Source: Nemertoderma westbladi
Lineage: Eukaryota > Animalia > Xenacoelomorpha
Direction of reading: 5' to 3'
DNA length: 64,000 nt
Assembly: GCA_032718475.1 (NCBI GenBank)
Contig: JAUCBJ010008420.1
Span: 1-64,000, forward strand
The notes under the pieces are model-generated. The model saw nothing but the letters and a program-made list of their open reading frames with translations. It was not told the DNA's origin and did no database searches. How positions within the stretch are numbered: the stretch's first letter is position 1; each line of letters starts with the position of its first letter. Made by a program: the position numbers and the translations under genes. Positions 5,456 to 61,373 of this stretch are shown piece by piece.

Positions 5456-5527
5456 CTTATTAAATCAACTACAGAGTATTTTAATGTAAAAGATAATAAA
5501 AATAACGGGGCAATTCAGCAAAGGCTT

Positions 5528-5915
5528 TTACAACAGTGTTCGATATTCCGCAGACAAAGCTATGTTGGTCGATGTTCCCCCAGACAAAGTTATGATTGTC
5601 GATGTTCCCCTAGACAAAGCTATGATGGTCGATGTTCCTACAGACATAGCTACGATTGTCGATGTTCCCCTAGACAAGGCTACAGTGTTCGATGATCCCG
5701 CAGACAAAGCTATGTTGGTCGATGTTCCCCCAGACAAATCTACGAGTGTCAATGTTCCTGCAGACATAGCTACGATTGTCGATGTTCCCCCAGACAAGGC
5801 TACAGTGTTCGATATTCCCGCAGACAAAGCTATGTTGGTCGATGTTCCCCCAGACAAAGCTACGATTGTCGATGTTCCCCCAGAAAAAGCTACAGTGTTC
5901 GATGTTCCCCCCAGT
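5528..5915 (+). repeat. 30-bp in-frame minisatellite (VDVPPDKATI-like decapeptide, ~13 copies), with degenerate copies at 6040-6150
   Basis: gatgttcccccagacaaagctacgattgtc units; translated in ORF 5562..6419. Confidence 0.9.
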
Positions 5916-7553
5916 CAAGCAATATATTTATGTAAAGAACTTCTATATGAAATCAATAGTAACATAGAAAGTGAGTGTGACAACTGTTGTATCAATGTGT
6001 CAAATTTTTATGGGTTTTCTTTGGACAGTATGGTTTGTGATATGCCCCTGGACAAAGCTACTATTGTAGATGTTCCTCCAGCCAGTGCTATGATGGTTGA
6101 TGTTCCCCCTGACGTAGCTGCGATGGTCCAAGTTCCCCCAGAGAATGCTATGGCGAGGAAATCTAGAAATAAAGAACCTCTGTATGGACTCGATGAGAAC
6201 ATAGAAAGTGACTGCGATGACTCCTATTTAGATGAAGATTACTCACCTTCAGAATATAGTTATTTGTCTGATTCTGAGTTTTTTGAGGATTATGATATTT
6301 TTCAAGGTTCACCTTCTCAGAGTAATAATTTTGAAGAAGGAGACGATAACATAGAATGTGTACCTGAAGATTTTATTGTGGATGGGCACCACCAGAAGAT
6401 GATGGTGTTGTTAATGTAAGCATAAAGCACTAAAAGTGCAAGAGACTGATAGTAAAGAAGAATCGGAATTCAGGCCAACCGTATTTGAGCGAGAAGTCCC
6501 GTAAAGAGTTTAGTTCTCGTCGTGTCCTTGGTACAAGATGTAACTGCGCCCTTCGCAACACCAAGGAAATTAAAGACTGTAGGTTAGTTAATGAGGAAGT
6601 TCGCAAGAATCTTATGGAATCGTTTTATGATCTTGGCAGTTTAGAGGAGCAGCGTAAATATATATTGCGCCATGTTAGATCTACATCACTTTGTGAACCA
6701 AAGGGGAAAAAGAAACAAACTCTTAATTACACACTATTTAAAGATGGTGAATACGTTTCTGTTTGCAAACAACAAAACTTTTAATATAAGCGAGAAATTT
6801 GTTTATACAACCATCAAGAAGCTGTCCGCAGATGGTGTCTTGGAAGGGGAGAAACGAGGTGGTCGAGTAGCATCTCTAAAAGTGAAAGATGAGTTTCTTG
6901 AAACAAGAACAAGTGAGCATATTGATAGATTTCCAAAGGTCGATGCACATTATACCAGGAAAGATTCCAAGAAGAATTATTTATCGGAGGATCTTTGTGT
7001 TCCAAAGATGTTCAGAATGTATAAAGCTGAAGAAAAGAGAGCAGGAAATCCTGCTGCTTCCTTTAGTAAATATTATAACGTCTTTCAATCGAAAAACCTA
7101 GCTATCCATCACCCAAAGAAAAATTTGTGTGGTCTTTGCGAAACGCACCGTAGTGCTGTAAAGACCCAAAATATTGTTGGTGGTGAGATTAATGCTGAGC
7201 TGAAAGAAGAGTACGAGCAGCACACTAGTGAAAAGTTGAAATATAGAGAGATAAAAGAGGATTTAACAAAAAGAGCAAAAGCTGATGAATGTAACCAAAT
7301 CGCCGCAGCTTCATTTGACCTTGAGCAGGTCATTTACCTTCCAAAATCCAACAGGGCGGAAATCTTTTATAAGAGACGTTTAGCAAATTATAGTTTTACA
7401 ATTTATAATCTGGCTTCAAAAGACGTACATTGCTATTTGTGGCATGAAGCAGTCGCTCAGCGGGGATCGAATGAAATCTCATCATTTCTTAATAAGTGGC
7501 TTCATTTCCAAGATGGTAGGGGAGTGACAGTGTTGTATGATGAGAGTATTTAA
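5562..7553 (+). pseudogene. Frameshifted Sola-like DNA transposase
   Basis: Consecutive ORFs 5562-6419, 6485-6784 and 6672-7553 carry HIDRFPKVDAHYTR, HPKKNLCGLCE and FDLEQVIYLP...FYKRRLANYSFTIY...CYLWHEAVAQRGSNEISSFL. Subterminal gacgaa/ttcgtc motifs run to about 8131. Confidence 0.7.
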
Positions 7554-31979: not shown

Positions 31980-32276
31980 CTCTCCCTTTATATCCAAGGA
32001 AGATGAAAACTATCCTATGGGCTGAGGATCTGAGTTACCCATATCAAAACCGAAGGAAGGCAATGGTAGACAGGCAACTTTCAAGTGTATATTGTAAATG
32101 AGGAAATCAAGAGCTATTACAGATGGAGTCAAGGCCGCATAACTGGCGCTGAATCGACAGTCAGTGTCAGCTACTCTGTGAGCGGAGCAGTTTGCTGCCA
32201 TCAATGGTGCTGTTAAATCTGCCATTTTTTTTACCTTTTGCAAAAAAAGTAAAACATAGATTGTTCCCAGTCTTAC

Positions 32277-32390
32277 CTGGTTTGGCGTCCAACAAATAAT
32301 GAAGAATGTTCCCACACAGACAACAGTTTTGATGACATTCCGTTTGACTGTTTCCTGAAACTGGGTACCTGGCCTTGCTGCCGAACCATC
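32277..32390 (-). CDS. Class A GPCR exon (ICL3-TM6)
   Basis: tttcag|DGSAARPGTQFQETVKRNVIKTVVCVGTFFIICWTPNQ|gtaaga; CWxP motif; 114 nt, phase 0/0. Confidence 0.9.
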
Positions 32391-32847
32391 CTGAAATTAA
32401 CCAATTAAAGGCATTAAAATCGAAAGTCATTCTTTTGTGGCATATTTACAATTTATACTTCTTTATGTACTGTCAAATTTTATTTATAGTTTTTTTTCTA
32501 TTAATTAATTAATGACAACATTAATATATTATTAACAAATAAAAAAATACGCAATATCAAGAATAAAAGCTCTTATATTTCTGGAAGTTAATCACCACTT
32601 ACTTGCAGTATGGTTTTAATTTGCACTACATTAAGAAACTCTCTGTCATCATTATGGTTTTAATTTTCAATTCAGAGATTGTATCCAGAACCAAATAAAA
32701 TGGGGTGATCTGTGTCAAATGTCAAATACCAAAAGAGTTATGGATCTCTCCCATTTTGGTTAAATTTTAATATAAGGTTAAGCGCAGTGATTGCACAGAA
32801 CAAAACACTGTATTTTATGGTGCATAGTTGCACAGGTTGCATTACAC

Positions 32848-34911
32848 TACTACTACTACTACTAGGATCGGCATGCTGCATTGCAGCTGCATTTTTAAGA
32901 ATGCTGTGCCGGCTTGTCAACAAAATTGCACCGCCACAACTCCCTATCACCCATGACATTTGCTAGATCATCCGCATCTTTAAGGCCAGTGTCCATTAAG
33001 ATGCGTCTCAAGAAAGTCATGGGCTGTCCACCATGCTTATTCACTCCATGAGGCTGCCAAAGTACAAGATTATGCACTGGCTGGTCCTCACGGCGAAAGC
33101 AATGTCCTGCAAAGCGGAGGCGATTTTGTTCTAGTGTCAAGCTTGGGGGAACCAATGAGACACCTCCAATGTTATATAGTGTCTGGTTGGAGATGTGTGC
33201 ATTGTACTTGACACAATGAACCCGGCGTAGCATTCTTGTGAATGTGCCATCCAGAGATTTGGTGTCCTCAGCAGTTAGAGCCCAGCATGGACTCCCGTAG
33301 AGGAGTACTGGAACTACTGCTGCTCTAAATAATCGGACCTTAAGTTTCCGATTAATTCTCGGTGACTTCCAAATCCTGGAAAGCCTATTCAAGGCTGCCC
33401 ATGCCTTTCCCTTACGTATTCGAAGGTCCTCACCTGACTTCCGGATCCATGATCCCAGGTAACAGAAGTCGTCCACATGCTCAAGCATACCATCCTTTGA
33501 GCTTATGCTCATCCGATCAGAGACTTGCTGAGGACTTTCAAAGTTAACTGTCAGAATTTTGGTCTTTCTGGAGTTAATAAAAAGACCAACACTAGAAGCA
33601 GCATGTTCTAATGAGCTGAGGAGCCGTTGGGCTCCCTCTAATGATTCTGAGAGTACTCCTAAGTCATCAGCAAAGTCTAGATCAGTTAGGTACTTGGCAG
33701 GATTTCCTCGACTTCTGGAGCCAGTAGGTGGAGTTATCATCACCCCATCATCATTATGATGATCTACGGACATGCGTAGAACATAGTCAACCACAATAAT
33801 GAACAAGAATGGTGCAAGTGTGTCTCCTTGGAGGACGCCCCATAACACTTCAAATGGTTCTGTGTCACCGTCAACAGTAGACACAAATGTTGTCGAACCA
33901 TCGTATACTGATCTGATTGCTGCAATAATTTCATCAGGAATCCCATATAATGAAAGTATGCTGAACATACGTGAGCGAGAGACTGAATCAAAGGCCTTGA
34001 AGAAGTCAACAAAGATAACAGCCAGATGCCTGTCTTTCTTATTTGATAATTCTTCAATTATCCTTCTAAGTGCCAAAATGGGCTCCATGGTCCCACGACC
34101 TTTACGGAACCCATTCTGATTTCCACGGAGCAGTCTCTCAATGGGATCCCTGATGCGATTTAATAGAATCCTATTGTATAGCTTTGCAGCAATCGAGATC
34201 AATGAGATTCCCCGAAAAGAACCATAGAGTGTTAGGTTGCCCTTCTTGGGAACTGGCACCAACTTATTTGTTTTCATTTCTTGTGGGACTCTTGTTGTAC
34301 GGTACATGTCTACTATGATGGGATAGATGAGCTTTAAACACTCAGGTATTTTAAAGACCTCAGGGGGAACACCATCTACTCCACTGGCACGATTGGTCTT
34401 AATGCTCTTTGCAGCAGCCTTCACTTCTGCAAAGGAGATATCGCCAATGGGAATATCTGGGAGTACAGACTCAGACACCTTTACTTCTATAAAGTTATCA
34501 GGCAATACCCTGTCATTATTGAGGAGCTTTTCAAAGTGGGCTTTCCAACCATTGAGGCGATCGGCTGGTGATTCAGCCTTAACCTTGGTGGTTGGTTGGC
34601 TTTTCCGCCCAGTAAGCAGATTGATCGATTTCCATGCCTGGGATGATTGCCTGCTGTCGTCAGCATCATTGATGGCATCAACCTGTTGGTTTATTAGCTC
34701 CTGTAGATTAACAGAGTACTGCCTGTTCAGGGACCTAGATGCAGCCTTAACTGCATTCTTGGCCGCTGTAGTCTGTTTGAGTCGGGACTCTTTCTGCGCC
34801 TTATGAAGGTCATTTCGGCACTTTTGAATTTTGTTGTCAGTCCAGGGGGCCCTTTTCCTGTTTCGAGGGTATACAGGAACTGTTTCTGCAGCTGCTAACT
34901 TAACTGCTTCT
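32848..34911 (-). mobile_element. Young 5'-truncated RTE-clade LINE with intact RT
   Basis: 536-aa ORF with FVDFFKAFDSV, GVLQGDTLAPFLF and DLDFADD; (TAG)n tail; candidate TSD ATTACAC at 32841 and 34912. Confidence 0.95.
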
Positions 34912-35380
34912 ATTACACAATAACGGCATTATTTCTTAAACTAGATAAATTATATGTTATTCCCTCTCCCTCATGAAAACTTTATTTTTAAACACACAAA
35001 ATATTGATATTGTTATTAAATTGACACATGATGTAAACAAAAAATAAGAATCTATGTATATAAAATAATAATATAATAATAATATATATAATATAATATT
35101 ATATTATATATAATATTATTATATGATAATATGATAATATAATAATAATATAATGTATGTAAAAATATCTGTATAAGAATGAATGTATATTTACTATATG
35201 ATGTGCTTGAGTAATGTATATTTACAATATTATCCAGATTATGCCTAAATACGTGTTGTTACAAGTTACAATTTGTTTATTGCACCTGTCAGGGATGGGT
35301 CTTTGAGGTAAACCACGTTTTGTGACCTCTTCTTTCAGCCTACAGTATCTATTTATTGACATGTTCAGTGATCTACTTAC

Positions 35381-43959: not shown

Positions 43960-45250
43960 AATCTCATAATAATGCGATAGCAAGGCAGCATGTTGTGGAA
44001 TTCTAAGACAATCTTCCCAAGATGCCATCATCGCATTACTGTAGGGCACATACCACTCGATTGTATGTAGAACCTCAGTTTAAAACTAAAAAAGCTTTGT
44101 ATGATTTGTATTGTCAAAATATCACAGAAAAATATAACGATGGTAATATTATGAGCTCGACTTCGTTTTTAAATGAAAGTGAAAATTTGAAAATTTCCCT
44201 TTTGGCCCCTAAAAAAGACCAATGCGATACGTGTGTGGCATTCAAACATCAAAATATTAGTAAAAGCGAATATGAAGAACACATGAATCGCCGGAGTAGT
44301 TTGAGGGCTGAGAAGGAGGCAGACAAAGAGAGAGGCATAGAAGCAAATGGCGATGGACTTATTGTTATAATGGTTGATGAGGAAGCAGTTGTATTGACCC
44401 CGTATGTTCAAGCAAGTGATGCCTACTACCGATCAAAGTTGTCGACGCACAACTACACTGTTTATAATTGTGTAAGTAAAAGTGCAACCTGTTATATTTG
44501 GAACGAGACAGAGGGCAATGTAGATGGAGAAGATTACGGATCCTGTCTGTATGATGATTACATAGTCCAATTAAATCTTAAACCGAAATAAATCAACGCT
44601 AATTATCTGGAGTGATGGTTGTGGAAGACAACATCGATGTGCACCTCTTGCGAATATCTTACAATATCTTGCATTGAAACTGGATGTAACAATAATTCAA
44701 AAATACCTAGAAAAGGGACATACGCAAATGGAGGTGGATACAATTCATTCAGTAATAGAGCGAAAAAGCATAGGGATAATATTATAGTAGGGATAGTATA
44801 TATTATATACGCCCCATCTAGCTTTGGTGAGTTTGTACGTGGTTGCAGATCTAAACAAACTCTGGTCAATAACTATGTTGAGCACACTTTCTTCAAGACT
44901 TTTAAAGCCATTGCTCTAATTTCTGACATTCGGCCAGGAAAGAAAAAAAGGCGATCCAATAGTAGTTAACCTTTGTTCACTGAAATACTCTAAAAGTGGG
45001 GACATGCCCTTAGATAAGTTAAACATAGGAGACCAATGGCAAGTGCTACCAGTTCGAAATCCGATGCAAGTGACATTACATAAGGTATCGATCGATTCAA
45101 GATCTGGAAAAGAAAATACTTGCAACATATAATTCAAGACTTTCAATATCTGAGAGAAAATATAATGATCTCCAGGCTTTGAAGATGGTGATACCCAAAG
45201 ATTATCAAAAATTCTACAATGAAATACCGCATGGGGCCGCTTCTGAATGT
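43960..45250 (+). pseudogene. Second Sola-like transposase relic (divergent from the 5.6-7.5 kb copy)
   Basis: LPKMPSSHYCR, PKKDQCDTC, YYRSKLSTHNYTVY, CYIWNETEG, IIWSDGCG and KYLEKGHTQMEVDTIHSVIER across frameshifts. Confidence 0.75.
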
Positions 45251-47900: not shown

Positions 47901-49681
47901 TCACTCTAAGACGAATCTGGCAAAACAGGCAGGTCTATTTATATAGATAGACAACAAAAATAATTACGGTTGAAGCAAATATTTCTTAGTAAATAATTGA
48001 AAAAATAACACAAAAAGGGATACCGGATTCGGTTAATTATGTAACAGACAGTTAAGTTCATGTGTCTGAAATTTCCAACCCTATCGTGGTTAACATAACA
48101 AAAGTTTCATAAAAAAGAGAAGAATAAACTAAAATACTAAAATAATCAAAATTTCGGATTACAATGGCTACTACCTGCAGATATTATTAGTAGTCATTAA
48201 AAAAAACACCTAAAATAGTTGGTTTTTCAAGTTGTACAGTAGTGGGACTATGGGCCCATTTCACTGTGCCAGTGCTGTGTTCCGGTCTGGTAGTAGGCAT
48301 AATTGTTTTGTTTACAGCCCTGTCAGTAACGAATAGGTCGTTCCTGAAAAAATGAAAAAATTCAAATGAAAAAACTAGTTTCGAAAAAAAAATGAAAAAA
48401 TACTTGCTTTTGAAAAAAAATTAAAAAAAATACTAAAAAAGTAGTAAATGGCCGGAAATCACCACCGTAATGAATATTATTTTTTTATTTTATTTATACC
48501 ATATAATCAGTCCATAAATACCAGTTTACCGTATTATGGTAAGGGGACCGAAAAGGTTACAGTGGTAGTTTTTTCTAACCAAAACAATAAGCGAGAGATC
48601 TCGGGTACATTTTGTGGTGTTTTACATACATACAAATAGGAATTCTTCATTTTGCAATGTTTTCGGGTAAACAGAATGTCCAAAACAGAGGCCCGAAAAC
48701 AAGTACCGGTATTTTAGTTAATGAATCAAGTTTTTAGGGGTATTTTTGAAGTTATTTTGAGGTATTTTGGTTTCTTGGTGTGTTTTGTGGTAATTCGTAG
48801 GACCGAGAGCTTCTGCCTAACAAATTCAAGTATATAGTGATACAATGTGTGATAGATAACGCTAAGTGATATTTTTTTCAAATAAAACAATATATTCGAT
48901 ATAAAAACGTGAGGGAAAGCACTATTTTCCACTCATTTTCTTTAGCGAAATTCAGGTATCCTGTATCAGGTATCAGGTAGCCCCCGTGTGTTGACATTCT
49001 AGCAAGCATTCTTGCAAACTCCTGTAAAACTCAACCACTCTAGACAAAATAGTTGAATTAAGCTGTTATGAAAATGAGTGCAAAAATGCGGTGTAGTCCT
49101 TAATGGGGTAGACGACTCGGAAATTTTTTTTCGAGTTTTCGTTGGTTTCATGTGAAAGAGCATGTGAAATAACCCCAGAGAGCAATTTTACTTAAAAAAA
49201 ATAAATATTGGCCGAGTTATAGCGATTTTAAAACGCAAAATTAGCAACATCGAAAAATCAGGCCGTTTCAGAAAACTGCACTAGTGACGTCACTAGTGCA
49301 GCAGTAAATGTTCATTGGTTACTATACAATATAAATCTCTTAGTAACTAAAATAAATTGTGTAGCTAATATTTATTTAGTGTGTTTTTGTGTTGTGTTAA
49401 GAATACATTATTTGATATCTTAATGTGGAAATTGATTCATGACAAGTTAATTATTCCAGAATAATAATTATTTTTCCCAAACTATACAGTTGTTAGCTAT
49501 AAAAATAAAATATATTTGTAGCTAAAACTGCCAGGTGATAGAAATCCAGTAGCTTATTGATGTTTCATTTAAGCTTCAAAACTTAGATTACTTTGGATTA
49601 GATTGTGGATTCGCACTTTTTCGATTGTAATTATTTTTATACAAGTTAAATTATTGAATTCCAATTGATAGTTGATAGTTA

Positions 49682-52600
49682 TACTCCAGTCCCTGGCTTT
49701 AGACCCCGTAGGAATTTTGGGGTGGACGGGGTTTCTCACCGAATCCTAGTTGGACATACATATATGGGTGAAAAAAACTTGGGTAGACTTTCTGGTTCCT
49801 GGGCGTAAGTTTTTTATAGCCATTTGTTTTGTGCGTCTGTGAGCTGTTCACAATTTCAAAAATTGCGGCGATTTGAGTATTTACTATGACAGTTTCCAAC
49901 GTAACATAATAATACACTTTAAAAATTGTGGTGAAAGTGGTAAAACAAAAAATACGCCACATAATATACAGTACCTGTTTTTTAATACATTGTGAAAAGA
50001 TCCAATTATTTCATGTAATAATGTTACCTATACATATTTTCTATGCTGTGCAAGTAAATACATTGTGTTCTAGAATACTAGCTACTAATTTATAGCTATT
50101 AATAAAATTTGTTACATCATTTTAAGTATTTATTTTTAACATCATTTTAAGTATTTATTTTAAACATAAATCATTAATTTAACATAAAAACAGAAAGCAA
50201 AAGTTATTGGTCTCACCGATAATGTTCGTTAAATGGAATTTTCCGAACTTCAGGGTCCCCATAAACATAACCATGTAGGCTAATTATTTCTGTTACTGCA
50301 CATCTTTCGCTATATTTTTCAATAAGAAATATCACAGAATTGTTCTAGAACAATTTACAAACACATTATATTAAAGCAAATATATGTTATTAAAAAATCA
50401 TTAAAAAATCATATGTGGCATATAATGCAAAAGTACCAGTAGCTAACAAAACTTTGTTAGCTACAGTTTCATATTGTTTGATACGGGTATATATATTTTA
50501 TACGTAAGAAGGCCCTTCATATTTTATTTATAATGTAGAAAGAAGGTGTTAAAAGTACAGTACATATAATAAATAATATAATTATTTATCTTGTTGAACA
50601 TCGAACAGTTTTTTTTTCAAATGGGAGACAACAAAGAACTTGTTGGACTACAACTTTGCAGAACTACAACATTAATTCGAGATGGTTTTGGGACATCAAT
50701 TGTTTGTGATGCTTCACGGTGTGTTATCTGTCAAGGTGTTGTATCTGTTAGGTTAGGGGGTTCAGGGGATAATATCACAGTTACCGGAACAACCGAAGGT
50801 AGAAAGAAAATAATAGCAGCCGCACAAATCCGAAAAGATATCGTTTTGAAAAGGATAAATTATCTGGGATTAGACTCTGAGTTTGTATATCATTGCAACA
50901 ATGAGTGTTACAAATTATACACATTAAAGAAAACACTTCTAAAAAAACAAAGAGAACCGGAAGTGATAGATATTTCTTCAGCAAATGCTGAATCTTGATA
51001 AATCACATCCTGAGGTTTATGATCAGTTCATGAAAGGCCATTTTGTTGTACGGAGAACTAAAGGGAAGTTTAATGCGGTTGGTGTCGATATGGCTCTGGA
51101 ACAGACAATAAATAGATCTCAAAAGTCAAGTGGTGGAATTATTGGTCAATCTAAGCGAAAAGACTATATTGCAGAATGGAAACTGGTCTATCATTAGGTT
51201 CTTTCAATTCGACAAGCAATGCAAGTACTACTTAATGTTAGACAAGTCGATTATGAACTGCAGATACATCATGAGTTAAGTGGAAACCTCAGAAACGAGA
51301 TGGATTTAAGTATAGCAAAAATGGTGCAGTATATCGAATGCAAAGAAAATCCCTATATTAATGGAGGTGAGGTTAAACTTCATAATTTATTAACAAACGA
51401 AATTGTACCACCATCAACTTCCGAAAAGCTACAGTGTAAGTGTACTTAACTTTTCGACCCTGGAAGACAATGTCTATTAGGATTGTTAGGATTGATTATT
51501 AGGATAACAGTAGTATGGCTGTAATGTACTGCTACTGCTGACTCCCTACCTAAGTCTGGCTCAGACCAATACTTGCAAATAAATACTGAACTTAAATACT
51601 CAATCCTGCAATCAATACCCTCTATCTGCCTGTTCCGCAATGGCACGCAAGGCTGACAAAGAGAACTGGGCTGCCGCTATACAAAAGCTTAATGACCTTA
51701 TTGAAGTTAAGTTCGAATATTTGGATGGAGACATTAAGCTCATAAAGACCCAACTAGAACTCATCCCAGTTATCCTCAAGGAAAACGAAACATTAAAAAG
51801 AGAGAACCTAGCTCTAAAAGACAAGATTGCAACACAAGAGCTACATATCGATGAACTCGACCAATACGAGCGGCGGCACTCGGTTCTGCTTCATGGAATT
51901 GCCGAAGGTAGCAAAGATGACGATCGGAAATCTCTCCAAGATGTTCTCTCCACCCTATGTATTAACTTTAACTCCGTTGACATTTTTCACTATATGCAAT
52001 ATTTGGTTAAGGTCATAAAGCCACGATCGACTAGTAAAACGTTTGACAGTCTTCGATCCGAAATCATTAGACAAGAAGGTGCTCCAAACTTATTAAACCT
52101 TCCTTGTTCAAGTCATTCATTGCAGGGTCATTTGTAGCGCGCCTTCTACAATGTTTATTTGTGTACATCAGTATTAAATAGTAACTCGCCCAACCTAGAA
52201 CCAACAGATTATGGATGGTCTATTAATGAGAATGACTCATCAATCATGCCCGATCCTTGGAATAATGAACTACCTAAATGGGCGACGATTACTTGCTTCT
52301 GCAAGAAGTGCAATACTATGCGATGCAGATGCCGGAAAGATATCGCTTCTTGCACATCATTTTGCAAATGCAATTTTGAAATGGAGTGCGAAAATATTCC
52401 ATAATAAGAACATTTTATAATTCATAGCATTTAATTAACATTATATAACATTTCATAATAAATTCACTCAGTGATCATATCAATATAACTATTTTACTAT
52501 GCCCTCGTTTCTTTATAACTCGCTTCGATCGGTTTATGATGAATTGGAGCATCGTAAAACCGTTATATTTGGTTAACTCTGGTAACAACAGCTAAATAAT

Positions 52601-52820
52601 AATTATCATTTGTACTCTTGATTTGGAAAAGTGATGAGGACACAGATGAATATTTGTATATTTATGACGTCATAAAATGACGTCATAAAAAACTTAGGCC
52701 CAGGAACCTAAAAGTCTACCCAATTTTTTGTTCTTCATTTTTGGACCCCAAACCCAGTTCAAGTGAGAAACGGCGTCCACCTCGAAATTCCTACGGGACT
52801 TAAGGGCAGGGACTGGATTA
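49682..52820 (+). mobile_element. Academ-like (AcademX) DNA transposon, internally deleted
   Basis: TTA|TACTCCAGTCCC ... GGGACTGGATTA|TTA (3-bp TSD, TA termini, ~130-bp imperfect TIR). Relics GHFVVRRTKGKFNAVGVDMALEQTINRSQKSSGGIIG, NLPCSSHSLQGHL*RA and PTDYGW...CFCKKCNTMRCRCRK...CTSFCKC (Cys8 finger). Confidence 0.75.
51437..51985 (+). mobile_element. LINE 5' fragment (ORF1 coiled-coil) nested in the Academ element
   Basis: Coiled coil followed by IDELDQYERRHSVLLHGIAE (LEQYSRRxNxxIxGIPE-type ORF1 motif). Academ coding resumes after ~51990. Confidence 0.65.
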
Positions 52821-54165
52821 TTAGTCCATGTAGCTGTAATGGATGACGTAGTAAAAATATCTTCAGCTGCCATCTCAATACAATCAGCATAAATCAGAAT
52901 TTAGTTGAACTATAACTACTGTATAATTTAAATTTTTTGATTATCTATTTTTTCACAATTTTGGGAAATATATATTCCTTCCAGAAGCTACGACTACTTT
53001 TCAGTAAACTTTGCATGTATATGGAATCATATGATACTTCAACTATTTTCACTTCGCCATTTATTTCAAAAGATGGATCTGCGATGCTAAACAAGGCCCA
53101 TTGTTTATTGCAAAGATGCATTTGAAGTTGGATTTGTGACATGAATTTAGCGCTTACGATATTCGATTGTGTAAGATAAGATTTTTGAATGGCATGTTTT
53201 GATGTTGGACATTTTACTTCTACCACATGCGTTGGTGTAATGGCATCTGAAATGGCATCAAAAAATAAGATTTTGTGGTATTTTATAAAAACACTAGCTA
53301 CAATATTAAAACAGTACATACCATTGAAAACACTAGCTACCACAAACATTTGTTTTTATTTTCTTTAAAACATTTTTTTTTTCACATGTAACTAGCCAAA
53401 ATATATCAAGAACATAAATCAATAGCCCAAAACATTATGTTTTGGTATTTTTTGGTATTTTGATATTTTTGGATGTCAAACCAAAAACAGCTATTATGAA
53501 AGGCAGAATAATGGTGACACGTGCAACACTAGTACCAGTAACACTTTACAGTGAACTGTACAAAAATCGAAATAATTTCCATCTAGTGCTAAATCTACCC
53601 ATCCATTGTTCGCTGTAAAAACAATTAAAAAATAGATTAATGAAACGCCTGGCAGTATTTAGCTAGCTATATTTGTTTTTAGCTACAGCTCTACGGTACT
53701 GGTATGGGCGAAATAAATATTATTCTAGAATAATTAACTTGATATGAATAATTTGCCTCCATACCGTTATCCTATAATCGATTCTTAACACAACACAAAT
53801 ACACATCCAAATAAATACATAGCTACATTTATTATTTGTTTTATTTTAGATACTGCAATATTATACTTTATATTAGCCAATCAACTGCGCTTGACAACTG
53901 TTGCTGTGTTATGGCTGACGTCACTCGTGCAGTTTTCTGAAACGGCCTGATTTTTCGATGTTGCTAATTTTGCGTTTTAAAATTGCTATAACTCGGCAAA
54001 TATTAATTTTTTTGAAGTAAAATTGCTCTCTGGGGTTTTTTCACATGCTCTTTCACATGAAACCAAAGAAAACTCGAAAAAAAATTTCCGAGTCGTCTAC
54101 CCCATTGTATGCATAAATGTTAATAGCAGTAAGTTTTTATTATTTTCCTTTACTTATATTTGCAG

Positions 54166-54255
54166 ATAAAAAATCTTCGAAACACGTCTGTAAGTTCTGT
54201 GGTCGAGGTTGTGCGAAACCAAGTGTTCTCGAAAAGCACATCCGTAGTCACACAG
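54166..54255 (+). CDS. shn: Schnurri/HIVEP-like ZAS transcription factor, exon with C2H2 finger 1
   Basis: tttgcag|...[26 protein letters not shown]|gttggt. [22 protein letters not shown] is the hallmark N-terminal finger pair of HIVEP/Schnurri proteins. Confidence 0.88.
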
Positions 54256-54740
54256 GTTGGTTGCTATGTATTAGAGTGAATGATGGATGGATGGATGGGC
54301 ACGGATGGGTTGGTGTACGTAGTACTGAAGAGCGAGTCAAGCAGTACTTCCAATGGGTAGCACTATAAGGCTGTTAAATGTTTGACTCATGAATATATAC
54401 AAACTATTAGGAATTATATTTATTTATTTATAAAGCACGTTATAAGTAAATAAACCTTACCGGTAGGTGTGTTGTGTTAGTACCAAAGTATGTAAAAAAC
54501 TAAAAAGACCTAGACGTTGCATGCAATCAGTGATCAGCTGACAGCAGCCAGCTGATCGGCAGGTTTCGCCCCGCAGCTGAAGGCATTCTCGGGAGGCCAA
54601 GCCAGGAAATGTAGAGAGAAATTCACAACATAGTACATAATAAATATTCACAATATAATACATAATAAATATAATTCACATTTCACAATATTATACAAAC
54701 ATGTAAAATTAAATTCTGTCATTCGTTCTCTGTTATTCAG

Positions 54741-57700
54741 GAGAACGTCCTTACCCTTGCCTTCCTTGCGGGCTTTCATTGTTCTGTTTTTCAGGAGAAC
54801 GTCCTTACCCTTGCGTTCCTTGCGGACTTTCATTGTTCTGTTTTTCAGGAGAACGTCCTTACCCTTGCGTTCCTTGCGGGCTTTCATTGTTCTGTTTTTC
54901 AGGAGAACGTCCTTACCCTTGCCTTCCTTGCGGACTTTCATTGTTCTGTTTTTCAGGAGAACGTCCTTACCCTTGCCTTCCTTGCGGGCTTTCATTGTTC
55001 TGTTTTTCAGGAGAACGTCCTTACCCTTGCCTTCCTTGCGGGCTTTCATTGTTCTGTTTTTCAGGAGAACGTCCTTACCCTTGCCTTCCTTGCGGACTTT
55101 CATTGTTCTGTTATTCAGGAGAACGTCCTTACCCTTGCCTTCCTTGCGGGCTTTCATTGTTCTGTTTTTCAGGAGAACGTCCTTACCCTTGCCTTCCTTG
55201 CGGGCTTTCATTGTTCTGTTTTTCAGGAGAACGTCCTTACCCTTGCCTTCCTTGCGGGCTTTCATTGTTCTGTTTTTCAGGAGAACGTCCTTACCCTTGC
55301 CTTCCTTGCGGGCTTTCATTGTTCTGTTTTTCAGGAGAACGTCCTTACCCTTGCGTTCCTTGCGGGCTTTCATTGTTCTGTTTTTCAGGAGAACGTCCTT
55401 ACCCTTGCCTTCCTTGCGGGCTTTCATTGTTCTGTTTTTCAGGAGAACGTCCTTACCCTTGCCTTCCTTGCGGGCTTTCATTGTTCTGTTTTTCAGGAGA
55501 ACGTCCTTACCCTTGCCTTCCTTGCGGGCTTTCATTGTTCTGTTTTTCAGGAGAACGTCCTTACCCTTGCCTTCCTTGCGGACTTTCATTGTTCTGTTAT
55601 TCAGGAGAACGTCCTTACCCTTGCCTTCCTTGCGGGCTTTCATTGTTCTGTTTTTCAGGAGAACGTCCTTACCCTTGCCTTCCTTGCGGGCTTTCATTGT
55701 TCTGTTTTTCAGGAGAACGTCCTTACCCTTGCCTTCCTTGCGGACTTTCATTGTTCTGTTATTCAGGAGAACGTCCTTACCCTTGCCTTCCTTGCGGGCT
55801 TTCATTGTTCTGTTTTTCAGGAGAACGTCCTTACCCTTGCCTTCCTTGCGGGCTTTCATTGTTCTGTTTTTCAGGAGAACGTCCTTACCCTTGCCTTCCT
55901 TGCGGACTTTCATTGTTCTGTTTTTCAGGAGAACGTCCTTACCCTTGCCTTCCTTGCGGGCTTTCATTGTTCTGTTTTTCAGGAGAACGTCCTTACCCTT
56001 GCCTTCCTTGCGGGCTTTCATTGTTCTGTTTTTCAGGAGAACGTCCTTACCCTTGCCTTCCTTGCGGACTTTCATTGTTCTGTTTTTCAGGAGAACGTCC
56101 TTACCCTTGCCTTCCTTGCGGGCTTTCATTGTTCTGTTTTTCAGGAGAACGTCCTTACCCTTGCCTTCCTTGCGGACTTTCATTGTTCTGTTTTTCAGGA
56201 GAACGTCCTTACCCTTGCCTTCCTTGCGGACTTTCATTGTTCTGTTATTCAGGAGAACGTCCTTACCCTTGCCTTCCTTGCGGACTTTCATTGTTCTGTT
56301 TTTCAGGAGAACGTCCTTACCCTTGCCTTCCTTGCGGGCTTTCATTGTTCTGTTTTTCAGGAGAACGTCCTTACCCTTGCCTTCCTTGCGGACTTTCATT
56401 GTTCTGTTATTCAGGAGAACGTCCTTACCCTTGCCTTCCTTGCGGACTTTCATTGTTCTGTTTTTCAGGAGAACGTCCTTACCCTTGCGTTCCTTGCGGG
56501 CTTTCATTGTTCTGTTTTTCAGGAGAACGTCCTTACCCTTGCCTTCCTTGCGGACTTTCATTGTTCTGTTTTTCAGGAGAACGTCCTTACCCTTGCCTTC
56601 CTTGCGGACTTTCATTGTTCTGTTTTTCAGGAGAACGTCCTTACCCTTGCCTTCCTTGCGGGCTTTCATTGTTCTGTTTTTCAGGAGAACGTCCTTACCC
56701 TTGCCTTCCTTGCGGGCTTTCATTGTTCTGTTTTTCAGGAGAACGTCCTTACCCTTGCCTTCCTTGCGGGCTTTCATTGTTCTGTTTTTCAGGAGAACGT
56801 CCTTACCCTTGCGTTCCTTGCGGGCTTTCATTGTTCTGTTTTTCAGGAGAACGTCCTTACCCTTGCCTTCCTTGCGGACTTTCATTGTTCTGTTTTTCAG
56901 GAGAACGTCCTTACCCTTGCCTTCCTTGCGGACTTTCATTGTTCTGTTTTTCAGGAGAACGTCCTTACCCTTGCCTTCCTTGCGGGCTTTCATTGTTCTG
57001 TTTTTCAGGAGAACGTCCTTACCCTTGCCTTCCTTGCGGGCTTTCATTGTTCTGTTTTTCAGGAGAACGTCCTTACCCTTGCGTTCCTTGCGGACTTTCA
57101 TTGTTCTGTTTTTCAGGAGAACGTCCTTACCCTTGCGTTCCTTGCGGGCTTTCATTGTTCTGTTTTTCAGGAGAACGTCCTTACCCTTGCGTTCCTTGCG
57201 GACTTTCATTGTTCTGTTTTTCAGGAGAACGTCCTTACCCTTGCGTTCCTTGCGGACTTTCATTGTTCTGTTTTTCAGGAGAACGTCCTTACCCTTGCGT
57301 TCCTTGCGGGCTTTCATTGTTCTGTTTTTCAGGAGAACGTCCTTACCCTTGCCTTCCTTGCGGACTTTCATTGTTCTGTTTTTCAGGAGAACGTCCTTAC
57401 CCTTGCCTTCCTTGCGGACTTTCATTGTTCTGTTTTTCAGGAGAACGTCCTTACCCTTGCCTTCCTTGCGGGCTTTCATTGTTCTGTTTTTCAGGAGAAC
57501 GTCCTTACCCTTGCCTTCCTTGCGGGCTTTCATTGTTCTGTTTTTCAGGAGAACGTCCTTACCCTTGCCTTCCTTGCGGGCTTTCATTGTTCTGTTTTTC
57601 AGGAGAACGTCCTTACCCTTGCGTTCCTTGCGGGCTTTCATTGTTCTGTTTTTCAGGAGAACGTCCTTACCCTTGCCTTCCTTGCGGACTTTCATTGTTC

Positions 57701-59654
57701 TGTTTTTCAGGAGAACGTCCTTACCCTTGCCTTCCTTGCGGACTTTCATTGTTCTGTTTTTCAGGAGAACGTCCTTACCCTTGCCTTCCTTGCGGGCTTT
57801 CATTGTTCTGTTTTTCAGGAGAACGTCCTTACCCTTGCCTTCCTTGCGGGCTTTCATTGTTCTGTTTTTCAGGAGAACGTCCTTACCCTTGCGTTCCTTG
57901 CGGACTTTCATTGTTCTGTTTTTCAGGAGAACGTCCTTACCCTTGCCTTCCTTGCGGGCTTTCATTGTTCTGTTTTTCAGGAGAACGTCCTTACCCTTGC
58001 CTTCCTTGCGGGCTTTCATTGTTCTGTTTTTCAGGAGAACGTCCTTACCCTTGCCTTCCTTGCGGGCTTTCATTGTTCTGTTTTTCAGGAGAACGTCCTT
58101 ACCCTTGCCTTCCTTGCGGGCTTTCATTGTTCTGTTTTTCAGGAGAACGTCCTTACCCTTGCGTTCCTTGCGGACTTTCATTGTTCTGTTTTTCAGGAGA
58201 ACGTCCTTACCCTTGCCTTCCTTGCGGGCTTTCATTGTTCTGTTTTTCAGGAGAACGTCCTTACCCTTGCCTTCCTTGCGGACTTTCATTGTTCTGTTTT
58301 TCAGGAGAACGTCCTTACCCTTGCCTTCCTTGCGGACTTTCATTGTTCTGTTTTTCAGGAGAACGTCCTTACCCTTGCGTTCCTTGCGGACTTTCATTGT
58401 TCTGTTTTTCAGGAGAACGTCCTTACCCTTGCCTTCCTTGCGGGCTTTCATTGTTCTGTTTTTCAGGAGAACGTCCTTACCCTTGCCTTCCTTGCGGGCT
58501 TTCATTGTTCTGTTTTTCAGGAGAACGTCCTTACCCTTGCCTTCCTTGCGGGCTTTCATTGTTCTGTTTTTCAGGAGAACGTCCTTACCCTTGCGTTCCT
58601 TGCGGGCTTTCATTGTTCTGTTTTTCAGGAGAACGTCCTTACCCTTGCCTTCCTTGCGGGCTTTCATTGTTCTGTTTTTCAGGAGAACGTCCTTACCCTT
58701 GCGTTCCTTGCGGACTTTCATTGTTCTGTTTTTCAGGAGAACGTCCTTACCCTTGCCTTCCTTGCGGGCTTTCATTGTTCTGTTTTTCAGGAGAACGTCC
58801 TTACCCTTGCGTTCCTTGCGGGCTTTCATTGTTCTGTTTTTCAGGAGAACGTCCTTACCCTTGCCTTCCTTGCGGGCTTTCATTGTTCTGTTTTTCAGGA
58901 GAACGTCCTTACCCTTGCGTTCCTTGCGGACTTTCATTGTTCTGTTTTTCAGGAGAACGTCCTTACCCTTGCCTTCCTTGCGGGCTTTCATTGTTCTGTT
59001 TTTCAGGAGAACGTCCTTACCCTTGCGTTCCTTGCGGGCTTTCATTGTTCTGTTTTTCAGGAGAACGTCCTTACCCTTGCCTTCCTTGCGGGCTTTCATT
59101 GTTCTGTTTTTCAGGAGAACGTCCTTACCCTTGCGTTCCTTGCGGGCTTTCATTGTTCTGTTTTTCAGGAGAACGTCCTTACCCTTGCCTTCCTTGCGGG
59201 CTTTCATTGTTCTGTTTTTCAGGAGAACGTCCTTACCCTTGCGTTCCTTGCGGGCTTTCATTGTTCTGTTTTTCAGGAGAACGTCCTTACCCTTGCCTTC
59301 CTTGCGGGCTTTCATTGTTCTGTTTTTCAGGAGAACGTCCTTACCCTTGCGTTCCTTGCGGACTTTCATTGTTCTGTTTTTCAGGAGAACGTCCTTACCC
59401 TTGCCTTCCTTGCGGGCTTTCATTGTTCTGTTTTTCAGGAGAACGTCCTTACCCTTGCGTTCCTTGCGGACTTTCATTGTTCTGTTTTTCAGGAGAACGT
59501 CCTTACCCTTGCGTTCCTTGCGGGCTTTCATTGTGCTGTTTTTCAGGAGAACGTCCTTACCCTTGCCTTCCTTGCGGGCTTTCATTGTTCTGTTTTTCAG
59601 GAGAACGTCCTTACCCTTGCGTTCCTTGCGGACTTTCATTGTTCTGTTTTTCAG
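54741..59654 (+). repeat. 91 x 54-bp tandem array of the exon start plus 3' splice acceptor
   Basis: Unit GAGAACGTCCTTACCCTTGC(C/G)TTCCTTGCGG(G/A)CTTTCATTGTTCTGTT(T/A)TTCAG. The first exon start is 54741 and the last is 59655; the difference is 4914 = 91 x 54. It encodes GERPYPC[LV]PCGLSLFC[FY]S. Confidence 0.97.
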
Positions 59655-59815
59655 GAGAACGTCCTTACCCTTGCCTTCCTTGCGGACTTTCATTTAAGAC
59701 GAAATCCAACCTTTATAAACACGAGAAGAGCCACGCACACGCTGGTAAGATGGTAGATGATGACGAGGATATTAGTGCTAGCGCTACAGAGAGTGGAGAT
59801 GAGCCCGTTTTACCA
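59655..59815 (+). CDS. shn: Schnurri/HIVEP-like exon with C2H2 finger 2
   Basis: (G)[38 protein letters not shown]...VLP|gttagt (phase 0). An alternative donor CTG|GTAAGA follows 59744. Confidence 0.85.
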
Positions 59816-60309
59816 GTTAGTATCGACCTCACAGAGAATTATTTAAATTAATTACTCTATGTATTTTATGGTAAAATTCACTAAATTTGGAAATGTAATG
59901 GAAATATGGACATGAGATTTGAGAAACAAACGTCAATATATAGCAATACATCATGTAAATGGTACCCATTGCAATGACGTTGAGCTCACCAAAGTGGCTC
60001 GCCTCGCACTCATATATACGTCGAGAGTCCTCTAATGGCAGAATGATGAATTTGGATATTTTTATGACTCTGCCAGTTTTTGGCAATCATGGTGATTAAT
60101 TCATGTTGTCATAGTTACACTGACTGCCAGGAGGAACATTATAGCTGCGCACCAACGTCTGTTTGTGGGTCTAATTTTCGCAAAGCCATTCGCTTTTTCT
60201 TTTTTTTGTTGGAATGTGTTAAATTTCAAGTAAAACTTTTGGTACCATTGGAATCGCCTTTCCATCTCTACAGTGATGGTGTAACCTGTACCTAACTAAA
60301 TACTAAGCT

Positions 60310-61213: not shown

Positions 61214-61373
61214 GAACCCAGTATTTATTACTCGGACGATGTAAGTTTCCCCAAGACGCAGACATCCACACCGATCGCATTAACAAGCACACCACGACTT
61301 CGGGAAGCTCTCGGCTCTCATTCCAACTCTATGTACATTCCCACTTCGACTCTGTCTACAACCATTGCACTGG
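61214..61373 (+). CDS. shn: Probable next Schnurri-like exon (Ser/Thr/Pro-rich)
   Basis: gtgtttttcag|EPSIYYSDDVSFPKTQTSTPIALTSTPRLREALGSHSNSMYIPTSTLSTTIAL G|gttagt. Phase 0 matches the 59815 donor. There is an internal strong donor GAT|GTAAGT at 61241. Confidence 0.55.

Follow-up and report, generated by a model that had tools for sequence, protein, structure and literature searches.

The first zinc-finger pair (ZF1,2) of a HIVEP/Schnurri gene is split, in a 64,000-nucleotide (nt) stretch of the Nemertoderma westbladi genome (assembly GCA_032718475.1, contig JAUCBJ010008420.1, positions 1 to 64,000 of the forward strand; hereafter the window), by an intron whose 3' end and the beginning of the following exon are repeated in tandem, with 92 candidate splice acceptors. 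By its sequence the array reads as a mirage minisatellite, spanning an intron/exon boundary with similar 54-bp units, concerted turnover and preserved splice signals, and it is an extreme case of this known repeat type. By analogy with published arrays, we consider it probable that the whole array is spliced out as intron at the last acceptor (59654), because only this acceptor lies near the downstream donor and near purine-rich exon sequence, and a slight leakage to neighbouring acceptors is possible.

On the whole, the array is highly regular. All 92 junctions read CAG|GA at an exact spacing of 54 nt, the last intron base being 54740 for the first and 59654 for the last. Between them lie 91 complete units of 54 bp (54741..59654, forward strand), which fall into six sequence types and differ at four sites (unit positions 21, 32, 43 and 49; mean pairwise difference 1.8%) with no insertion or deletion (indel). 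The 92 tandem acceptors and 91 exact-length units described in an earlier note on this DNA are therefore borne out, and so is its AG-free tract of about 49 nt, as AG occurs within the unit solely at positions 2-3 and 53-54. The exon part of the unit, given there as about 35 nt, counts to 40 nt (nt 1-40 of the finger-2 exon); the other 14 nt of the unit look like the intron end, CAG included. The ending TTTTCAG|G, claimed for all units, is found in most of them, while five units read TATTCAG; the CAG|G itself is kept at every copy (92 of 92). Two variants of the exon part are common, one silent and one exchanging Leu and Val, and unit 89 carries an additional variant, Phe to Cys. Apart from this, every junction (54738-54743 to 59652-59657) reads CAG-GAG and has the NAGNAG form, where splicing at the second AG would take out one codon without shifting the frame. 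Acceptors with GAG are rare.

Sampled words of the region are present in two DNA runs from two studies, X1 and X2, at fractions of 0.67 and 0.62, and either run is possibly the source of the assembly. Among the loose ends seen for X2, a minority of all, one contig has an end identical to the unit-to-unit junction. Unless X2 is the assembly's source, tandem copies therefore exist outside the assembly. They are real with good probability, and the copy number of 92 is that of the assembly. Run X4 was considered as RNA on account of its small word share; it covers 26 of 30 bins with many differences and displays no exon-exon joint, thus behaving as DNA. The junction has no exact match among the metagenome contigs searched.

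The gene is identified, from sequence, as the first pair of HIVEP/Schnurri by several comparisons. The finger-1 exon (54166..54255, forward strand, 90 nt, phase 1 at both ends) is supported by its translation, by Pfam (zf-C2H2, E 3e-5, slightly below the Pfam cut-off), by alignment with residues 1-25 of human MBP-1 (PDB 1BBO) and by HIVEP homologues, which are identical at up to 21 of these 25 residues; finger 1 stops at 54255 and GT comes next. The finger-2 exon after the last acceptor (59655..59815, forward strand, 161 nt) holds the whole of finger 2 and an acidic tail, as seen from homologue alignment and Pfam (zf-C2H2, E 8e-5, again below the cut-off). Both exons match 1BBO at the corresponding fingers, and the family motifs of the first C2H2 pair are present in finger 1 and finger 2, so that these motifs and the acidic patch are shared with HIVEP1-3/Schnurri ZF1,2. 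Homologue searches are led by named HIVEP/shn proteins, the best being identical at 46 of 53 finger residues, and the closest ones (crinoids, a fish and amphioxus) are nearly tied. The assignment to Schnurri/HIVEP made in the earlier note is thus confirmed. The finger-2 exon likely ends at the donor GTTAGT at 59816 and not at the alternative GTAAGA at 59745, since the acidic tail can be aligned with homologues up to 59803 and the GC fraction falls from 0.46 to 0.32 beyond 59815. A candidate next exon of 27 nt (61214..61240, forward strand; EPSIYYSDD in phase 0) is proposed on splice signals and phase alone, having a strong acceptor, a GTAAGT donor and a phase that fits the donor at 59816. A tblastn search of 127 homologues against the window finds no further exon, and the gene, which in this family has a second finger pair and in flies also fingers 6-8 further downstream, probably continues beyond 64000.

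The linker between these fingers is otherwise invariant. Among 147 proteins examined (19 without the finger-2 motif and one without finger 1), all 127 homologues showing both fingers have one residue, G or N, separating HT from ERP, and the same one-residue linker is found in the 13 of 14 longer homologues that show both fingers, making 140 of 140 overall; the short TGERP linker described as normal by the earlier note is well founded. The first pair is present in 48 of 80 animal metagenome loci, in each case with the same linker uninterrupted by an intron, while the remaining 32 fall outside the first-pair patterns and the E-value ranking favours uninterrupted loci. No tandem array is seen at the finger pair in the 80 loci, which come from short-read assemblies and are mostly intronless there. 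At the locus studied here the fingers are on separate exons, and the intron between them (54256-59654) is absent in all 48 first-pair loci fetched; possibly it was gained in this lineage only, at an AG|G site. One database protein (P0015) starts at the same point as the finger-2 exon, a hint that another organism has this intron. The unique 5' part of this intron (54256..54740, forward strand, 485 nt) has a GT donor and ends in acceptor 1, which is probably the ancestral intron end. High-copy dispersed repeats flank the finger-1 exon (48400-49900 and 52800-54790), with a summed contig depth in the thousands, and one of them lies inside the unique intron part (54256-54740).

A literature search for this locus or for long acceptor arrays, which covered few subscription papers, brings up the amphioxus cases. 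Passages of PMC3087553 describe, for BflGb6, the 3' end of the intron and the start of the exon duplicated in tandem, in three and six units of 150-160 bp, together with length instability, and report the authors' suggestion of regular splicing from reverse-transcription PCR and Adh3 data; the same is described for the Adh, TnC and PGBD5 mirages in passages of PMC3902484. Like these mirages (BflGb6, BflGb9, Adh3, TnC and PGBD5), the Schnurri array consists of tandem copies across an intron/exon boundary, with high internal identity, a divergent edge copy and the preserved AG, and like BflGb6 it is of the acceptor-side type. It has, however, 92 copies over 4.9 kb against 3-6 copies in BflGb6, and unlike the amphioxus mirages it is wholly in frame and lies inside an invariant zinc-finger linker. 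In human CBS 844ins68 an intron end and exon start are likewise duplicated, in two copies of 68 bp that are not a multiple of three, compared with 92 in-frame copies here; the distal site is strongly favoured and gives normal mRNA, according to a passage of PMC2630376 that says 'donor' where the title of its cited paper says 3' splice site. Many identical tandem splice sites are also found in mammalian donor-side minisatellites of 5-26 copies, whose geometry (5' sites) is the mirror image. As given in parts of PMC1557585, the authentic site is used alone in F7 (IVS7), LMNB2 and PDGF, and together with two neighbours in the interferon-inducible 6-16 array (25 pseudo-sites) and CBS intron 13, meaning that the site adjoining the real exon wins and at most two neighbours leak.

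The order of the unit variants, together with the low divergence, appears from sequence as a pattern of minisatellite turnover. A block of 12 units is present twice (reached in 1 of 2000 shuffles), the last 22 units form alternating dimers (P 0.0003), and only units 7-31 carry the variant that agrees with the unique intron end (P 0.02). The edge copy, which is the intron end before acceptor 1, diverges from the units. The array is best read as a young and unstable repeat. Its putative founding breakpoints are two copies of the 5-nt microhomology TCATT, one on the intron side (54719..54723, forward strand) and one on the exon side (59690..59694, forward strand; exon nt 36-40), where the exon part common to the units ends. 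A single slipped duplication between the two would yield a founding unit of 57 nt; the unit is now 54 nt, with 3 nt different from the unique intron end, and slippage or unequal exchange would have amplified it to 91 units. Acceptor 1 lies within a predicted 8-bp hairpin (54724-54747) pairing the intron end with the first exon bases and shortened in the units by the 3 missing nt, and this quasi-palindrome may have promoted the founding slippage.

What would set the last acceptor apart is the exon that follows it. With the donor at 59816, the exon could measure 161, 215, 269 or 323 nt and, by further steps, up to 5,075 nt, and only three of the 92 acceptors give 300 nt or less. The unique exon sequence behind the last acceptor only (59695..59815, forward strand) has a purine fraction of 0.58-0.62 against 0.31 in the unit, and purine-rich words, by a crude ad hoc motif list, are confined to it, making it a candidate splicing enhancer region. 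Exon definition would favour acceptor 92, with its exon of 161 nt directly adjoining this purine-rich sequence; no other acceptor would be paired with the downstream donor by the spliceosome, and the array would be removed with the intron. Leaked use of neighbouring acceptors would keep the frame, escape decay and be tolerated, and such tolerance may have allowed the array's extreme length.

As for the signals themselves, each unit has weak branch-point candidates at -42 and -17 (counting the G of AG as -1), and 33 of the 91 units have an additional A at -23, which is present in the unit before acceptor 92 and absent from the two units preceding it. The branch point ccttAc proposed by the earlier note for every unit, with its A at -42, fits yUnAy but fails the stricter yUrAy, and lies just outside the 19-37 nt typical of human introns in passages of PMC10078293. 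Acceptor 1 stands 485 nt from the donor, behind an AG-free zone of about 105 nt (from 54634) and with several adenosines at -28 to -46. The unique intron ahead of it holds 33 AGs, so that scanning for the first AG would not choose acceptor 1 from the donor side, as had been supposed; AG scanning starts at the branch point. Two other proposals are rejected. RNA structure does not select the last acceptor, as all acceptors are mostly paired in the prediction and the last no less so; nor are the units micro-exons or recursive-splice points, the three GTs per unit being poor donors and the junction AG|GA.

We then consider whether the reading frame is special. Splicing in silico of the 54166-54255 exon to acceptors 1, 2, 46, 91 and 92 is in frame in all five cases, with a 1638-aa insert from acceptor 1 and the plain finger pair from acceptor 92 only, which upholds at the five acceptors tried the earlier arithmetic of up to 1638 aa added in frame, as well as the claim that the canonical protein comes from the last acceptor only. 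TAA, TAG and TGA are absent from the unit in every forward frame. This openness, presented earlier as notable, is real but unspecific: full shuffling leaves the given frame open in 64% of cases, and shuffling confined to the intron-derived bases at the junction does so in 88%. The unit is apparently pyrimidine-rich because the exon codons that were copied encode Pro, Cys, Leu and Phe, and the lack of stops and indels is expected because the units differ at four sites only. Actually, the only special property of the frame is a unit length divisible by three, which happens once in three by chance.

Several points weigh against removal of the array at the last acceptor. The 91 internal acceptors equal the last one in sequence, and predicted RNA folding gives a probability of the AG being unpaired of 0.029 at the last acceptor versus a median of 0.062 internally. 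The -23 A, occurring in 33 of 91 units, is unremarkable before acceptor 92, and the three-unit pattern has a chance of about 0.15. The predicted founder (57) and the present unit (54) are both multiples of three, and the common exon-part variants are silent or Leu/Val, both residues being frequent in homologues (33 and 49 of 127); these lengths and conservative variants are weak hints of coding tolerance, and in-frame arrays may simply be better tolerated. The acceptor-side precedents, as far as their passages go, hold 2-6 copies and not 92. Experiments on duplicated gamma-globin sites, moreover, disagreed, one set showing use of the proximal copy and another the opposite (parts of PMC1557585).

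If internal acceptors were used, finger 2 would remain whole but displaced from finger 1, with a likely loss of paired DNA binding. The 18-residue repeat contains CxxC and a third Cys, and the full 1638-aa insert (about 179 kDa) has 17% Cys and no His and is hydrophobic, with a grand average of hydropathy (GRAVY) of +0.44. It is not a C2H2 zinc-finger array of the coding kind known from PRDM9 (CxxC plus HxxxH per 28 residues), as the unit has 18 residues and no histidine. The best 150 matches of a repeat-plus-finger query against 1.84 billion representatives are ordinary multi-finger proteins, 35-50% identical, and half-fingers of short period occur in none of them. A protein with the repeat is also missing from three homologue searches (112-2000, 935-2977 and 2978-5000 aa), a weak blank in that this species' own HIVEP protein is not found in them either. 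AlphaFold2 on four units plus finger 2, run with no alignment, gives a mean predicted local distance difference test (pLDDT) of 52.7 and a predicted template-modelling score (pTM) of 0.36, and does not recover the known finger helix. In passages of PMC10853822, the Smad complex of Drosophila Schnurri is mediated by fingers 6-8, and disruption of fingers 1,2 leaves flies viable and causes mild ectopic veins. The role of Schnurri as a Smad co-factor, which the earlier note brought to bear on this pair, is thus less pertinent than implied; acceptor leakage could be tolerated because the fly mutants are viable and mild, and by the same analogy its effect on bone morphogenetic protein signalling may be small.

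Among the alternatives, the use of several acceptors to a substantial extent and without regulation, giving a short or long ladder of 54-nt steps in which Cys-rich half-finger repeats separate fingers 1 and 2, is unlikely, though it has several facts on its side: the frame is kept at all 92 sites, the internal sites match the last one in sequence and predicted accessibility, the 6-16 and CBS intron-13 arrays use two extra sites (PMC1557585, in part), and flies that lose fingers 1,2 are mildly affected (PMC10853822, in part). Against these stand the mirage and 844ins68 precedents, which splice normally in the passages cited, the linker invariant in 140 of 140 homologues and, weakly for the reason given above, the absence of a repeat protein from the searches. 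The bolder form, in which dozens of acceptors are used, a variable Cys-rich spacer uncouples the fingers, and the length of the array or the choice of acceptor determines the active fraction as a transcription-factor dial, is distinctly improbable.

We give little credence to dominance of the donor-proximal acceptor 1, by which the array would become a 5-kb coding exon adding 1638 aa. Its distance to the donor, its AG-free zone and its upstream adenosines would suit such use, as would the proximal choice reported for gamma-globin in PMC1557585, but a 5,075-nt exon contrasts with visible exons of 90 and 161 nt, the hydrophobic insert lacks the His for C2H2 closure, and the linker is invariant elsewhere; the predicted hairpin is a further obstacle, though other acceptors are predicted to be paired too. 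There is a similarly small chance that the array harms splicing by exon skipping or intron retention, marking a weakened allele or a dying copy. In that case 91 competing polypyrimidine/AG modules could titrate U2AF, translation of a retained intron would end at a stop no more than about 40 codons past the donor, and fingers 1,2 are dispensable for fly viability (PMC10853822, in part); both fingers are nevertheless intact, with identity to homologues at up to 46 of 53 residues, even if with a young array no decay would have set in yet.

A selected and regulated rheostat, in which tissue- or stage-specific acceptor choice tunes HIVEP DNA binding, is highly improbable. The unit length divisible by three (twice, counting the 57-nt founder) and the lack of indels and stops in 91 units, even though a stop would arise from 12 of the 162 single changes possible, would agree with it, but with four variable sites this lack is expected, the open frame is near chance, and the array is young (1.8% divergence) with no conserved counterpart found in the searches. 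Overall, among the options raised in the earlier note (a tunable linker, a ladder, a rheostat or silenced decoys), that of ignored decoys is the likeliest, while the tunable forms gain no positive support, the frame being near chance and the precedents splicing normally. Finally, that misassembly produced the 92 copies, the array being far shorter or absent in the organism, has very little probability, for although no read or contig is seen across the whole array and the exact 12-unit duplicate could be a mis-join, the interspersed variants, the polarity and the missing indels resemble a genuine minisatellite and the unit junction is found in the X2 contig.

Even if it is ordinary, the array is the longest acceptor array among the cases compared. 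It offers a natural test of acceptor choice, its 91 near-identical acceptors being in frame, hence free of decay bias, and barcoded, and the -23 A variant could separate branch-point placement from distance to the downstream donor as the determinant. Arrays of this kind mislead gene prediction, here through an open frame of 1.7 thousand aa. Should several acceptors be used, repeat instability would have a way of giving rise to graded isoforms of a transcription factor.

Elsewhere in the window, at 2-2152 on the reverse strand, a 717-codon open frame with an Ala/Glu-rich tandem repeat matches DUF1759 (E 1e-13), which we take to be typical of the Gag of BEL/Pao long terminal repeat (LTR) retrotransposons, and at 32898-34928 (reverse strand) a 677-codon reverse-transcriptase frame (RVT_1, E 1.5e-28) belongs to a non-LTR retrotransposon; by eye, the minus strand holds many further reverse-transcriptase fragments from 10.8 to 47 kb. 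The reverse strand also has a YqaJ-like fragment at 52948-53355 (E 6e-4). The stretch 32013-32396 (reverse strand), with no Pfam match at E 0.01, resembles helix 6 of a rhodopsin-type receptor and is possibly an exon of an opposite-strand gene. In addition, two forward-strand open frames at 5490-7550 and 44007-44588, with no informative Pfam match, are by eye related, unclassified and transposase-like, and the former contains a 30-bp coding repeat at 5540-5911.

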